Below, piece after piece: positions 1,442 through 50,473 of a DNA stretch of 64,000 nucleotides. Position 1 is the first letter of the stretch. Each line of letters starts with the position of its first letter. A model generated the notes under the pieces. That model worked only from the letters and a program-made list of their open reading frames with translations, was not told where the DNA came from and made no database searches. Both the position numbers and the translations under genes were made by a program. This DNA is from Heptranchias perlo (taxonomy: Eukaryota): assembly GCF_035084215.1 (NCBI RefSeq), contig NC_090370.1:6200001-6264000 (forward strand). Reading direction: 5' to 3'.

Positions 1442-1704
1442 CTCTGCTCAGGATGACGGTGTCTTGCAGGATTTTTCCACCGTTCTCCAGGGTCGAACAG
1501 TTCCACCTCTGGTCCCAGAGCTGGTGTTGACATTCGTGAATGGCGATCTGAATCCCCTGAACAGCAGCGGCGGTGACATCAGGGCTCCTCACGCACAGAC
1601 CCAGCTGTCGTCTGCTCAGACCCGGTAGGGTCAGACAGACCGTGTTGGCAGTCAGGATCGGGTCTGCTGGTATCTTCAGTCCCAAGATCTCATTCCCAGC
1701 AACA
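1442..1704 (-). CDS. WNT10B: Wnt10b coding exon 2 (263 bp, phase 2 to phase 1); gene continues beyond the left edge of the window
   Basis: Translates [111 protein letters not shown] and QHQL match Wnt10b better than Wnt10a (from recall, not an alignment). Acceptor tttctctggtttAG|T at 1705/1704, donor AGAG|GTATAG at 1442/1441. Confidence 0.9.
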
Positions 1705-1917
1705 CTAAACCAGAGAAAAATAATGGACAATAGAATAAGCAGTATTGTTAATAATATAAATATTAAAATGAATGTACACAAAAAATGCAAACATATCGTT
1801 TTATAAAAGAGACTTTTTTTCAATGTTTCAATAATAAAACACAATTTCAAGCAAGACTCGAGTGTGACACAACAGGCGAGATGACTGTGCGAGACTCCAC
1901 TCAGAATCGTTTCTTAC

Positions 1918-1982
1918 CGGTAGATCGTGAGTGAGATGGTGAGAAACAGAGAGACATGTCCGGAGTTTGAGGAAACTGCCAT
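1918..1982 (-). CDS. WNT10B: Wnt10b first coding exon (signal peptide)
   Basis: ATG at 1982 gives MAVSSNSGHVSLFLTISLTIY plus CG|GTAAGA, a strong donor. Phase 2 joins exon 2 in frame (CG+T = Arg, then [10 protein letters not shown]). Hydrophobic signal-peptide-like segment. Not in the ORF track. Confidence 0.8.
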
Positions 1983-2261
1983 TGCAGGAAATTAAATCGG
2001 CGCAAACAGATCGGTGCAAGGGACTATTGGGAACCACACGGGAATGATCTCCCAAACCAGGTCTGGCAGCGAGTGTATCAGGATCATTACAATCTCGTCC
2101 TCAGTGTCATGTTTCATTTCCTCGCTCAGCTGCTCCTTATAGCCGCTAGATTGAGTCAGTCAGGATTTAAAAAGTCACAGAAGAAAAAAATCCCCACTCA
2201 GTTCAAAGACAGATTGAACGTAGATAGATCAGTCAGTCTTATTTTGCCAGATCACTGACGC

Positions 2262-2535
2262 TTTCTATCTCTTGTCACTCTCTATCTCCCTCTATCTTTG
2301 TACTGTATTTCAAGCTTTCCCTCTCTCTCACTCTTTACTATCCCCCTCTGCCTTTCCCTCTCTCCCACCCACACACTCCCTCTGTCTTTTCTCTCTCTCC
2401 ACTCTCTCTCCCTCACTCACTCCATATCTGTTTCTATCGCTCTCTCTCTTCCCCCCCCCCCACCTTTCCTCGCTCTCTCTCTCTCTCTTCTAGCTCCCTT
2501 CTCCTCCCCCTTTCATTCCCTTCTCTCTCTCCTTG
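2262..2535. repeat. CT-rich low-complexity / polypyrimidine tract
   Basis: Degenerate (CT)n run; source of the spurious Leu/Ser-rich ORFs 2272-2567. Confidence 0.85.
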
Positions 2536-2836
2536 CGCAGGTGGATCAGACAAATGCACAATTTTAAACGGAATACTTTGATCATTATCGAACCATAAAT
2601 GCTCAAGTAACCTTTGAAAATGAAAGTTAATTGAAGTGCATCTGTTGAAAGGAAGCTGGCAGGTTCGCCAAGTGATGCTAGTTGTTTGCAGTGCATGGAG
2701 TGTGCGCGCCTGTGTATTCCTGCCCCGTTTTTAATGCACCTTTCTCCGCCTGTCCCTCAATCCCTGGATACATCATGTTCTCTATCTCTTTCTCTCTCCA
2801 TACACGTTAGCATATTCGCGAATTTCTGCTGCTTAC

Positions 2837-2990
2837 TGTCTTGGAGCAGCCTTTGCTAAATGAGGACATCGACAGAAGCGGGCGGACAAGAGTGGAACCA
2901 ATCAAAACGCACCGAAGACTTAAGGTTCCACTTGGAACTTATCGACCGCCGAGATCAGGCGTAGTGGCCGCCGTTAACGGGACGCCCTCC
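2837..2990 (-). promoter_or_regulatory. Candidate Wnt10b promoter and short non-coding first exon
   Basis: CpG-rich patch with a GC box (GGGCGG 2880-2885) and CCAAT (2898-2902), followed on the minus strand by a donor-like ACA|GTAAGC at 2837/2836. Inference only. Confidence 0.35.
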
Positions 2991-46768: not shown

Positions 46769-48639
46769 TGAGATCAGTCAGAATATTTCTTGAAAATTAT
46801 TTTGGCTACCATCTTGTTTGGTCAGTGACCTGAGGAACATGGTATTGAATAAGGTTGCAAATAAAAATACAATTCACAACAAAAGCATTAAACTTACCCA
46901 TACAGTTGCCTTTCCTATGTATGAAATCACTCCAATAATGTTTCCCTCCAGAGGCTTGCCCTTCTTTCAAGCACCTAGAACTTGAGGCCATAGGGCTTCC
47001 CACAGCTAGCAAAGTCAGCTGAATGAAGACACTCAACCTGGTAGTAGACTAGAATACCCAGAATGCACTCATGTCACTCTGTGCAAGCACTGTGGACAAA
47101 ACTCCAGAATTGCACCTAAGGCTGCCTCCCTTCTGAGACTACATTGGCTGCATAACACACCAAGATTATTTTTTTATGATTGACAGTAAGACTGACCATT
47201 TATAGATTGTGGCAGGACTTACTGTTTGTAAGTCAGGCCCATTCCTCCCTTTCCATCAGTTGACAGAACTAGGTCACAGGGAAGCTATTATTACGACCTT
47301 TGAAGGTAGCGTGATTTTTATTTTGTATTAGAATGTCAAGACAAAGTAAAGCATGAACTTTTGAAGTCTATCTGAGGTAACTTTGACAGGTAAAACTATG
47401 AAATGATTTACAAAGGCATGTTTATTTACATAGCTAAACACATTACAGGCAAAGATTTATTCATTAATTATTTTACTTATTTACCTACAATAGGTGAGAA
47501 AAGCACTATGTACTCAATTTAATGTTTATTTTCTATGAGTAATGCCATGGGAGATCCAGTATTTCTAGCTATATAGTTAAAGTATTGTGTCTAGTGCATC
47601 TCTAGTATCACATATTTTAAAGGTGTCACATCTGAAAATGTGGCTGCAGAATTGTCATACCTGAAAGGTCCACAAAAAATATCATGACTGAAATAACCAT
47701 TTATCTGTTACAATTTCACCAATTAATTAAAATAGGAGCAGGTCAAATATACCAAAAAATACCAATGAGAAATGAGTAACAAACAGAAAATTAAGCAAAT
47801 ATCCAATTGACTAAATGTGAACTAATCAAAAATAGCCAGAAGTACCAATGTGAAACGCATAACCAGCAGGTAACCAAATAATCTAATCCTTCAATTTCTT
47901 TTTGCTCTCCAAAGCTTTCATTCACAAACCAGAAAATGCCACAAAACCAACAAATTAAAAAATCACTCAAAATAATCTCTTGATACTGTTTTTAAGCCAC
48001 CATTTTCTCTCTCCGCTCAGGTGAGTGTATACAGCTAGAAAAAAAAAACATTTATAACATCACAAGCACATAAAACTGTTACAGAACAAAGTATCCACTA
48101 AATTGGTTGTTTAATTTTAGAAATGCCTCAGAGAAGTTTCCCCTAGATTCTGTCTGGGATCTGGGACTTGACTTCTGTTGGATTCCTCAAGGTCCATTCT
48201 TTACTGGGTCTAAATGAAGAGGCTCAGCCATGTAATAGACTCCCAGAATGCACCAGTGTCACTCTGTGCAAGTCACACTTGTGTCTTACACTAGTGTATT
48301 GAAACTCCTCGATTGCACCTGTGGCATTGTGCATATTATTCTGACACCACAACTTCCAGAACACACGTAAACCTGTCACTTTCTCCTCGGTTCAATGCGG
48401 GACAGGAAGGGCGGGGCCCTTGAACAGGAAGTTGTTGCACATTCTGCCGATAGACAGTCTTGCAGTCAGCCATAAAAAATATAGCTGTTCTAAGGATAAA
48501 TCTCAATTTTCTGATTGAACAAACAAAAAATTGTCCCATATACAGCCTTCTGATTGCAAATCAGATCCAGAGGGACAAAAATTCTCAGACCACCTGCCAT
48601 AACCTAAGTACAATTGAATACTTTAATATAAATGCAATC

Positions 48640-49100
48640 GAAGTTCTCTTAGACGGTCTTAAAGGGCTCAAAAAAAACAAGTCGTCAGGGATAAATTGAA
48701 TTTATACCAGAGTATCAAGAGCGATAAAAGAGATTTGTGAGGCATTGAAGGTCGATGAACATTGGGGAAGTGTTAGCAGACTGGAAATATGTTAACATAG
48801 TGTCCATTTACAAAACGGGTCACTATGCAACTACAGACTCTTTAGTCTTACTTCAGTACTGTGTAAAATAATGGAATCAATTATCATGAATAAATGTGAC
48901 GGTTATTAGTACAATAATAATTTCAACATTGATTCAGAAGGGGATGACCCTGCCTCACCAACTGCCTTGATTTTTTGAGAAACTGTCATCACAAGTGGAC
49001 TGTGGTCAGTCCTATAGTATGGTGTAGCTTGACTTCCAAAAAGCATTCGACAAAGTTCCACATGACAGGCTCGTAGTTAAGCCCAAAACTGTGGGAACTC
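48640..49100 (+). mobile_element. Decayed CR1 reverse-transcriptase fragment
   Basis: Frame-broken RT motifs: aactacagac...agtcttacttcagta (NYR..SLTSV) and gacttccaaaaagcattcgacaaagttccacat (DFQKAFDKVPH). Confidence 0.8.
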
Positions 49101-49365
49101 AGTGTATGATATAATCAATATTACTCCATCTCAAAATAAAGTTACATCCTTAATACTCTCCCTACTTACTCCAGATACATTAGATAATGTTACTCTGGAA
49201 TTAATTGTGATTAGTTTTTTTTTGATCCTATTTAGACTCTGTAATAGTACACAGTTCTTCGGTATTAATAATGAGTTCCTATCAGTGCCAAAATGACCCT
49301 AGACGTACAGAGTTATAATATGATAGTCTAACAGACGTGGATGAAATGTAAAGACTGCTACCACG

Positions 49366-49725
49366 GTTTCAGCCATGACTCTGTGGTAGTACTCTGCCTC
49401 TGAGTCAGAAGGTCATGGGTTCAAGTCCTACTCCAGAGACATAATCTAGGCTGACACTTCTGTGCAGTAGTGAAGGAGTGCTATACTGTCAGAGGTGCTG
49501 TCTTGAGATGTTAAACCGAGGCCCTGTCTGCCCTCTCAGGTGCACGTAAAAGAGCCCATGGCACTATTTCAAAGAGAAGGGGAGTTCTCCTTGTGCAAAT
49601 TGGCTACTGTATTTCCTACATTACAACAGTGACTACACTTCAAAAAGTACTTCATTGGCTGTAAAGCGCTATGAGGCGTCCTGAGGTTGTGAAAGACGCT
49701 ATATAAATGCAAGTTCTTTCTTTTT
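49366..49725 (+). mobile_element. Deu-domain SINE, plus orientation (internally deleted)
   Basis: Head tcagccatgactctgtggtag...gggttcaagtcc, tail gacgctatataaatgcaagttctttc; reverse complement of the other copies. Confidence 0.85.
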
Positions 49726-49984
49726 ACTATTAGAGTATCGTTCTATTCAGACAGTATACTAAAATAATATTGAAGCACTTCACCCATAATGTTTATTAGT
49801 ATTTGTGAGATGTATGCATTGGTACAGACTGCAGTATCCCCTCCGTCTCACTAGATCGAGATATGTTGCATCTTCAATAGTTGAGCCAAGAGTGCAATGT
49901 TCTGCAATGTTCTGACAGGGGATCATTACTTTCTAATAAGCAGCACTGTTTATATATACTGATCAATATTTATCAATTTCACAG

Positions 49985-50473
49985 ACTGTCCATGCCGAGA
50001 TGAGACAGGAGTGTAAGTGCCACGGAATGTCTGGCTCTTGTACAGTTAAAACCTGTTGGATGCGGCTCCCCACCTTTCGGACAGTGGGTAATTTGTTGAA
50101 GGACCGCTTTGACGGAGCCTCCCGAGTGATCTACGGCAACAAGGGCAGTAACCGTGCTTCCCGAGCAGATATGCGCCACCTGGAGCCCGAGAACCCAGCT
50201 CACAAACCGCACTCTCCCCAGGACTTAGTCTACTTCGAGAAGTCACCCAACTTCTGTACAGTGAATAGTAAAATGGGCACCACAGGTACCATAGGTCGAG
50301 CCTGCAATAACACTTCCCTGGGCCTGGACGGCTGTGATTTGCTGTGCTGTGGGAGAGGATTTCGTACTCTGACTGAGAGGGTCACTGAGAGATGTCACTG
50401 CACTTTTCATTGGTGCTGCCATGTCAGCTGCTTAAACTGTACGACCACACAAACTCTGCACGAGTGTCTCTGA
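49985..50473 (+). CDS. WNT1: Wnt1 exon 4 (489 bp including stop)
   Basis: tttcac[37 protein letters not shown]...[26 protein letters not shown]...[24 protein letters not shown]. Confidence 0.97.

Follow-up and report, generated by a model that had tools for sequence, protein, structure and literature searches.

What became of Wnt6 on the vertebrate chromosome segment that carries WNT1 and WNT10B is the question raised by this locus. The human order at 12q13 is ARF3-WNT10B-WNT1-PRKAG1-DHH, and canonical human WNT6 lies at 2q35, in tandem with WNT10A. An ancient Wnt1-Wnt6-Wnt10 cluster was reportedly described by Nusse in 2001. We analyzed a 64-kb stretch of the genome of the shark Heptranchias perlo (the window, without any N), in which Wnt10b (−), Wnt6 (−, hereafter Wnt6b) and Wnt1 (+) are all present.

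Structure of the three Wnt genes

The gene models confirm the initial annotation, which had placed a Wnt10b-like gene (−), a complete Wnt6 (−) and a complete Wnt1 (+) within 50 kb, on the strands stated there. Every intron of Wnt6b and Wnt1 is of the GT-AG type. The features are as follows:

1442..1704, − strand: Wnt10b exon 2, with AG/GT ends and a match to PF00110 (E 4.9e-13); the spliced protein falls in the Wnt10b clade
1918..1982, − strand: Wnt10b exon 1, which holds the start codon and encodes the signal-peptide region, running from ATG to GT in the right phase and splicing in frame
11579..12221, − strand: probable Wnt6b 3′ untranslated region, into which spliced contigs of runs X3 and X5 continue past exon 4
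12222..12683, − strand: Wnt6b exon 4, carrying CKCHGLSGSC (which includes Ser216), the cysteine-rich C-terminal part and the stop codon, PF00110; contigs of runs X1, X2, X3 and X5 lie on it
19159..19460, − strand: Wnt6b exon 3, PF00110; contigs of X1, X3 and X5 show it spliced to exon 4
21546..21766, − strand: Wnt6b exon 2, PF00110; run X3 (contig 16) shows it spliced to exon 3
22491..22567, − strand: Wnt6b exon 1, which holds the start codon and encodes a hydrophobic leader, matching exon 1 of the orthologs and of the paralog on contig C7
32077..32168, + strand: Wnt1 exon 1 (gene model), divergent from Wnt6b
32413..32666, + strand: Wnt1 exon 2 (gene model), PF00110
34345..34610, + strand: Wnt1 exon 3 (gene model), PF00110
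49985..50473, + strand: Wnt1 exon 4 with stop, PF00110; its closest match elsewhere in the genome reaches 54%
G000:C49:6197101-6197465 and 6191554-6192012, − strand: Wnt10b exons 3 and 4, outside the window, before its start

The Pfam wnt domain PF00110 was matched above cut-off by all seven exon translations tested (E 5e-13 to 4e-62), including the three Wnt6b exons scanned (exons 2 to 4). Wnt1 is intact, with four exons encoding 366 residues, and is the single Wnt1 found in the genome. The start codons of the divergent Wnt6b and Wnt1 genes lie 9.5 kb apart. No further genes were recognized between the three Wnts, the Pfam scan covering three long non-Wnt frames there, one of them a reverse-transcriptase fragment. 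The contig that holds the window, C49, yielded no more than three Wnt last exons, and the gene order on it is Arf(−) Wnt10b(−) Wnt6(−) Wnt1(+) AMPK-gamma(−) hedgehog(−). With Arf on one side and AMPK-gamma and hedgehog on the other, the flanks agree with the gene order of human 12q13.

The Wnt10 gene of the cluster has exons 1 and 2 inside the window and exons 3 and 4 just before its start, and its spliced 383-residue frame is open. Exon 1, which was absent from the initial annotation, encodes a segment with 70% identity to the N terminus of a protein annotated Wnt-10b. In a protein tree (LG+G4) the spliced protein groups with Wnt10b with support of 99/100; the Wnt10a identity that the initial annotation had named as a possible refutation was therefore rejected. 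Separately, we observed that the WGGC motif of chondrichthyan Wnt10b is altered in 13 of 13 records.

Wnt6b consists of four exons with 1,062 coding nucleotides that specify 353 residues without an internal stop. Four runs contributed contigs on the gene (X1, X2, X3 and X5), which we treated as RNA by guess, none being on record as such. The exon 2–3 and exon 3–4 joins in these contigs fall at the predicted splice sites; an exon 1–2 join was absent among the pieces listed, the splice-joint table being dominated by repeats. Spliced contigs extend beyond exon 4 to 11651 (X3) and 11579 (X5), the true 3′ end not being fixable from contigs. Wnt6b contains 25 cysteines and Ser216, as does its C7 paralog, and the serine of CKCHGxSGSC (here Ser216) is the conserved Wnt residue that is lipidated by Porcupine. 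Wnt6b departs from the alignment in four columns that are conserved elsewhere: it has K127 where 32 of the 36 other rows have E, R206 where 33 have M, D314 where 29 have G and M322 where 27 have V. We rejected a pseudogene, and also a retrocopy, because the latter would lack the introns, all of which are retained.

A second Wnt6 in the same genome

A search for a second Wnt6 beside Wnt10a, as had been proposed, located a canonical Wnt6 on contig C7 (9028836-9098861, + strand), followed in tandem by Wnt10a (+), exon 1 of which was not found on C7. The C7 and window proteins are identical at 287 of 353 residues (81%) and their exons are equal in length (77/221/302/462), with a span of 10 kb for Wnt6b vs 70 kb for the C7 gene. 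By a simple counting method dS is about 1.5 and dN/dS is 0.07; thus, the pair is old and constrained. It is the C7 gene that groups with the canonical tetrapod and teleost WNT6 and stands beside Wnt10a, and the window gene does neither, which upholds the earlier claim that the window Wnt6 is a second paralog and not the ortholog of human WNT6.

Both neighbors of Wnt6 are duplicated in parallel: Wnt10b and Wnt10a on one side and, upstream of Wnt6 and on its strand on both C49 and C7, a hedgehog gene. The hedgehog-Wnt6-Wnt10 block thus has matching order and strand on the two contigs. In a search of solved structures both exons of both hedgehog genes matched Sonic hedgehog best, and for this reason the labels Dhh and Ihh rest on position.

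Phylogeny, species distribution and origin of Wnt6b

By its best matches and its tree position the window protein is a member of the Wnt6 subfamily. In a 37-row Wnt6 tree (LG+G4), it groups with 11 chondrichthyan Wnt6-like proteins, including that of a chimaera, with support of 94/82. The C7 gene falls together with the canonical Wnt6 of Heterodontus and Callorhinchus (93/90), and a quick version of the Wnt6 tree gave a similar grouping. The canonical Wnt6 clade has support of 53/86, and the key branches are not strongly supported. Duplication at the level of this species was rejected by an AU test (p 0.00025).

Orthologs of Wnt6b are found in sharks, rays and chimaera, and a separate canonical Wnt6 accompanies it in the present genome as well as in Heterodontus and Callorhinchus. 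The Wnt6-like and Wnt10b genes are linked in 11 of the 11 other elasmobranch species whose records both gave a contig size, linkage here meaning equal contig sizes and adjacent accession numbers, not coordinates; in three species the accessions are consecutive (GCC20381/2, XP_069761755/6, XP_078057432/3). The coelacanth Wnt6-like and Wnt10b records both give a contig size of 19,336,178 bases, and the Wnt10a record gives one of 103,744,520 bases. The coelacanth protein joins the Wnt6b group at 83/61 on a long branch (0.52); of the 14 diagnostic residues, it has six in common with Wnt6b and four with canonical Wnt6. Its placement as canonical WNT6 gave an AU p of 0.24 and was not rejected; this AU test and those on a chondrichthyan-only duplication and on the teleost gene used LG+G4 without a mixture model. 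No closer relatives of it were found in lungfish, amphibians, gar or bichir (among the best 120 of 178 matches, and among 15 members each of the two large 90% clusters, which have 71 and 119), which is not proof of Wnt6b loss because 90% clusters hide members. Thus, the "extra Wnt ligand in this lineage" of the initial annotation is indeed an intact coding gene, but it belongs to all groups of cartilaginous fishes, and probably to the coelacanth, rather than to one lineage.

Given its paralogy, species spread and 12q13-like flanks, Wnt6b most likely arose as the sister of WNT6 by whole-genome duplication. A different origin, which we judge very unlikely, is that Wnt6 was duplicated only in the cartilaginous-fish ancestor and that the copy landed, or was gene-converted, between Wnt1 and Wnt10b. 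The exon 2 protein of the two shark Wnt6 genes is nearly identical, and a single clade uniting the 15 chondrichthyan rows is not rejected by the AU test (p 0.19), although the free tree is better by 17.8 log-likelihood units and places the duplication before the shark/bony-fish split, at the 83/61 node. Against such an origin, Wnt6b keeps all introns, its neighbors are duplicated too, the coelacanth Wnt6-like gene is on a contig of the same size as that of Wnt10b, and Wnt6b occupies the ancestral place of Wnt6, amphioxus and lamprey keeping Wnt9-Wnt1-Wnt6 according to passages of PMC6060547.

Still less probable is that Wnt6b, though an old ohnolog, has come under relaxed constraint or begun to decay in the lineage of this shark and is no working ligand. 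The changes at K127, R206, D314 and M322 point in this direction, as do 9 of 22 coding differences to run X3, among the differences listed, that alter an amino acid; but the other 13 are silent, though silent sites make up less than a quarter (245/1059), and frame, splice sites, all 25 cysteines and Ser216 are intact. Moreover, spliced contigs exist, and the end branch of Wnt6b is short (0.042, the shortest of its group but for two). We give least credence to an assembly artefact, either a Wnt6 haplotig or a misjoin between Wnt10b and Wnt1. The whole cluster is spanned by no piece among those listed, but the protein diverges by 19% from C7 Wnt6, the window is without gaps, the linkage recurs in the 11 other species, and X-linkage of the three genes has been published (10.1101/2025.03.13.642935).

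Relation to known Wnt6 genes and evolutionary meaning

Wnt6b of sharks and rays is already named in print and the gene is not new. Marletaz 2023 (PMC10115646) describes wnt6b as a retained ohnologue that had been characterized before, with reference to Kuraku 2021 (Dev Biol 477:262), and Niwa 2025 places Wnt1, -6b and -10b on the X chromosome of five elasmobranchs. We infer that the window gene is the Wnt6b of these papers because the name, the pattern of retention and the stated location alongside Wnt1 and Wnt10b all agree. A literature search for Wnt6b together with Wnt6a synteny found no publication. Like chondrichthyan Wnt6b, the window gene is an additional Wnt6 that cartilaginous fishes have retained in linkage with Wnt1 and Wnt10b; it shows 84 to 88% whole-protein identity to four RefSeq "protein Wnt-6-like" records of sharks and rays and 91% to Heterodontus, all in one tree group, and it differs in nothing of kind, its four residue changes being lineage-specific. 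With canonical vertebrate WNT6 it shares the four-exon layout, length, cysteine count and tandem position before a Wnt10 gene, but it differs at 14 group-diagnostic columns and adjoins Wnt1. The divergent teleost Wnt6 (carp "WNT 6a-1") likewise gives a fish genome two Wnt6 genes, but it groups with or near canonical Wnt6, has mostly canonical diagnostic residues and is on a contig that differs in size from that of Wnt10b in six of six species compared by eye. It is probably a product of the teleost duplication; an AU test of its joining the Wnt6b group gave p 0.07 (not rejected). As in the ancient invertebrate cluster, Wnt1, Wnt6 and Wnt10 are adjacent on C49, but a Wnt9-type neighbor is lacking among the three Wnt last exons found there; for amphioxus and lamprey, PMC6060547 reports a Wnt9-Wnt1-Wnt6 cluster with Wnt10 apart.

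Taken together, we hold with a probability of about 0.9 that the window is an unreduced copy of the Wnt1-Wnt6-Wnt10 cluster from an early whole-genome duplication and that its middle gene is the known Wnt6b, presumably an ordinary secreted ligand. The unreduced copy had been proposed in the initial annotation, and the Wnt10b grouping and the second Wnt6 beside Wnt10a support it. An early vertebrate genome duplication would have produced two copies of a block hedgehog ... Wnt1-Wnt6-Wnt10. One (C7; human 2q35) would have lost Wnt1 while keeping Wnt6 and Wnt10a; the other (C49; human 12q13) would have stayed complete in sharks, rays and chimaeras, and probably in the coelacanth, with Wnt6 presumably lost later in tetrapods and ray-finned fishes. 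Judged by its sequence, Wnt6b would be exported by its leader peptide, lipidated by Porcupine at the conserved serine and bound by Frizzled/LRP5-6.

A role of its own for Wnt6b is a speculative, on balance unlikely, extension: an X-linked, incompletely dosage-compensated ligand, co-regulated with Wnt1 through a shared divergent promoter region, would help to pattern shark-specific tissues or contribute to dose-based sex determination, and would have survived into the coelacanth before separate losses in ray-finned fishes and tetrapods. Given the altered motif of chondrichthyan Wnt10b, ligand properties may have changed across the entire X-linked cluster.

Since Wnt6b was already named, flagged as a retained ohnologue and reported as X-linked, the window adds one species, not a gene; small additions are the paired hedgehog-Wnt6-Wnt10 order on C49 and C7, the hint of coelacanth linkage and the Wnt10b motif. 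The expression of both Wnt6 copies can be compared in shark or skate embryos. The shark cluster would be a living example of the ancestral Wnt1-Wnt6-Wnt10 arrangement, with reciprocal losses explaining human WNT1-WNT10B vs WNT6-WNT10A.

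Gene content and splicing of the cluster

Wnt exons were located by six-frame translation, and their exact ends were then set from the sequence (contig C49, positions 6200001-6264000, of G000, the 3.25-Gb Heptranchias perlo genome). The coding features in the window are as follows:

1442-1704, Wnt10 exon 2, the exon seen in the initial annotation
1918-1982, Wnt10 exon 1
22491-22567, 21546-21766, 19159-19460 and 12222-12683, minus strand, the four coding exons of Wnt6
32077-32168, 32413-32666, 34345-34610 and 49985-50473, plus strand, the four coding exons of Wnt1

Wnt10 exons 3 and 4 lie outside the window, 2.5 and 8 kb before its start, and the spliced Wnt10 frame is open over 383 residues. 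The spliced Wnt6 frame runs for 353 residues without a stop, with all introns GT-AG, and Wnt1 encodes 366 residues. All seven exon translations tested passed the Pfam Wnt cut-off, and the closest database proteins of the window genes were all from sharks. The initial annotation had described a Wnt10b-like gene, a complete Wnt6 (minus strand) and a complete Wnt1 (plus strand), and the open frames, GT-AG introns and Pfam Wnt matches bear this out. Wnt6 and Wnt1 are transcribed divergently, with start codons 9.5 kb apart; Wnt6 and Wnt10 are in tandem at a distance of 10.2 kb.

Wnt6 splice junctions were sought by comparing four sequencing runs guessed to be RNA with window positions 11500-23500; two of the runs, X3 and X5, are from a different organism and study. 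Joins at predicted sites were found in three runs: one X1 contig connects 12683 to 19159 with zero differing letters, one X3 contig connects exons 4, 3 and 2, and one X5 contig connects exons 4 and 3. Such joins at GT-AG sites in guessed-RNA runs most probably reflect splicing.

A LINE-like fragment lies between Wnt6 and Wnt1 (26781-27854, minus strand; RVT_1 match with an E value of 3.7e-6, below the cut-off), tandem repeats at ~27.8-29.0 kb and 32.5-33.2 kb carry long open frames, and low-complexity tracts occupy 8.2-9.0, 20.6-21.4 and 37.7-42 kb. Very high-copy repeats in the Wnt6 introns (12940-13330 and 19680-19850) draw thousands of contigs.

Two Wnt6 paralogs in one genome

Searching the genome with Wnt6 exons 4 and 3 turned up another Wnt6 copy, on contig C7 (79% and 76%, respectively). 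This gene has the same exon lengths as the window gene, an open frame and a span of 70 kb, and shares 287 of 353 residues with it; simple counting gives a dS of ~1.5 and a dN of 0.11 (ratio 0.07). A Wnt10 gene follows it on the same strand. Wnt1 exon 4 found one Wnt1, with the next match, among the best candidates scored, at 54%. Last-exon matches number 26 in the genome, corresponding to about 22 Wnt loci. Two more Wnt pairs, at C3:36.1-36.5 Mb and C33:26.5-26.95 Mb, are probably the putative Wnt3a/9a and Wnt3/9b pairs; each lies 0.2-0.3 Mb from Arf genes, resembling the Arf gene adjoining Wnt10b on C49.

A Wnt10 tree of 30 rows placed the window Wnt10 on the Wnt10b side (branch supports 99/100), in a cluster with proteins of other sharks and rays (100/99), and kept the C7 Wnt10 among Wnt10a. 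Thus, the window gene is Wnt10b, not Wnt10a, and the second Wnt6 expected beside Wnt10a is present on C7. P0275, a Scyliorhinus torazame protein labelled "Wnt-10a-like", also falls with Wnt10b, and on its sequence its annotation is a database mislabel. A 37-row Wnt6 tree joined the window gene to 11 chondrichthyan "Wnt-6-like" proteins, including that of chimaera (94/82), with the coelacanth "Wnt-6-like" protein attached at 83/61. The C7 gene clustered (93/90) with the canonical Heterodontus and Callorhinchus Wnt6 proteins, taking the canonical place and leaving the window gene as the second paralog. A quick mixture-model tree of 47 rows divided the proteins in the same way (SH 90 and 92). Tree rows were hand-picked among several hundred matches, with two records deliberately omitted. 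Lamprey and hagfish have two Wnt6 proteins each (P0065, P0076, P0393, P0060), which form a separate group (99/95) outside the jawed-vertebrate pair in the 37-row tree.

In AU tests of constrained trees, sisterhood of the two H. perlo Wnt6 genes was rejected (p = 0.00025). A single clade of all chondrichthyan Wnt6 copies (p = 0.19), a union of divergent teleost Wnt6 with the window gene's group (p = 0.07) and a union of the coelacanth protein with tetrapod WNT6 (p = 0.24) were unrejected. On these results, the tree, as read from these proteins, shows a duplication before the shark-chimaera split, and a pre-jawed-vertebrate age is not proven by the tree alone.

Linkage and history of the cluster

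The neighbors of the two Wnt6 genes are as follows:

C49, 6.09 Mb, minus strand, Arf gene
C49, 6.33 Mb, minus strand, AMPK gamma-subunit exon
C49:6667559-6722119 (6.67-6.72 Mb), minus strand, hedgehog gene upstream of Wnt6 and on its strand
C7:8625094-8667728, on the strand of Wnt6, hedgehog gene 0.36 Mb upstream of Wnt6

The C49 order matches the human order, ARF3-WNT10B-WNT1-PRKAG1-DHH, plus an extra central gene in the shark. The order hedgehog-Wnt6-Wnt10 is present twice in the genome, and this doubling of each gene in the same order is the trace expected of a block duplication. In human, IHH sits beyond WNT10A instead; this difference in hedgehog position implies a later rearrangement.

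Across species, linkage was assessed by a proxy, equal contig size, rather than coordinates. Wnt6-like and Wnt10b records were on equal-sized contigs in all 11 elasmobranchs with both sizes given (Hemiscyllium, two Chiloscyllium, Rhincodon, Stegostoma, Rhinoraja, Narcine, Heterodontus, Cetorhinus, Carcharodon and Mustelus), with consecutive accession numbers in three. Outside this count were Pristiophorus (no size), Scyliorhinus (no Wnt6-like protein listed) and one further species. By the same proxy, coelacanth Wnt6-like and Wnt10b are linked, both being on a 19.3-Mb-sized contig with consecutive UniProt accessions (H3BIA9, H3BIB0), and the coelacanth Wnt10a record gives a contig of 103.7 Mb.

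The second Wnt6 on C7, the trees and the paired neighbors uphold the original reading, and we put at about 90% the probability that the window holds the cartilaginous-fish ohnolog Wnt6b within a Wnt1-Wnt6-Wnt10 cluster that has lost no member. A Wnt1-Wnt6-Wnt10 cluster would have been duplicated by an early vertebrate genome duplication, and one copy would have dropped Wnt1 before sharks and bony vertebrates split. The other copy would have dropped Wnt6b later; if the coelacanth retains it, tetrapods and ray-finned fishes would have lost it independently. Nusse reportedly treated the ancient Wnt cluster in 2001. The name "wnt6b" may collide with teleost usage, where it denotes the canonical copy.

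The Wnt6b ohnolog of cartilaginous fishes is real and already known. Marletaz et al. (2023, PMC10115646) refer to wnt6b as a retained ohnologue that had already been characterized, citing Kuraku 2021. In the passages available, Niwa et al. (10.1101/2025.03.13.642935) list Wnt1, -6b and -10b among eleven X-chromosomal signalling genes in five shark and ray species, with incomplete dosage compensation. For amphioxus and lamprey, the clusters described by Somorjai et al. 2018 (PMC6060547) consist of Wnt9-Wnt1-Wnt6. The literature passages searched held no statement of the order Wnt10b-Wnt6b-Wnt1 or of the coelacanth case, which reviews or supplements may contain.

Wnt6b as a predicted ligand

Wnt6b carries four lineage-specific changes at conserved columns: K127 (codon at window position 19380), R206 (about 12667), D314 (12343) and M322 (12320). 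Assembly errors are unlikely here because contigs from X1 and X2, possibly the source individual's own runs, span all four codons without differences. In X3 and X5, codons 127, 314 and 322 encode the usual residue. Separately, Wnt10b exon 3 (G000:C49:6197101-6197465, locus L027) encodes WEWGDC in place of the conserved WEWGGC. A D likewise precedes the Cys in each of the 13 further chondrichthyan Wnt10b sequences examined, 11 of them also with the second W changed to R; G occupied the position in every pattern-matched comparator (9 of the 17 Wnt10b records from bony vertebrates and 6 of the 8 from Wnt10a, the remainder being unmatched). WEWGDC is possibly a shared change affecting ligand folding or binding.

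The Wnt6b sequence has a leader, 25 cysteines, Ser216 within CKCHGLSGSC and two N-glycosylation sites at positions shared with the C7 paralog, which points to an ordinary Wnt ligand. Wnt family members are lipidated by Porcupine, secreted through Wntless and bound by Frizzled and LRP5/6, and by family resemblance Wnt6b would be as well.
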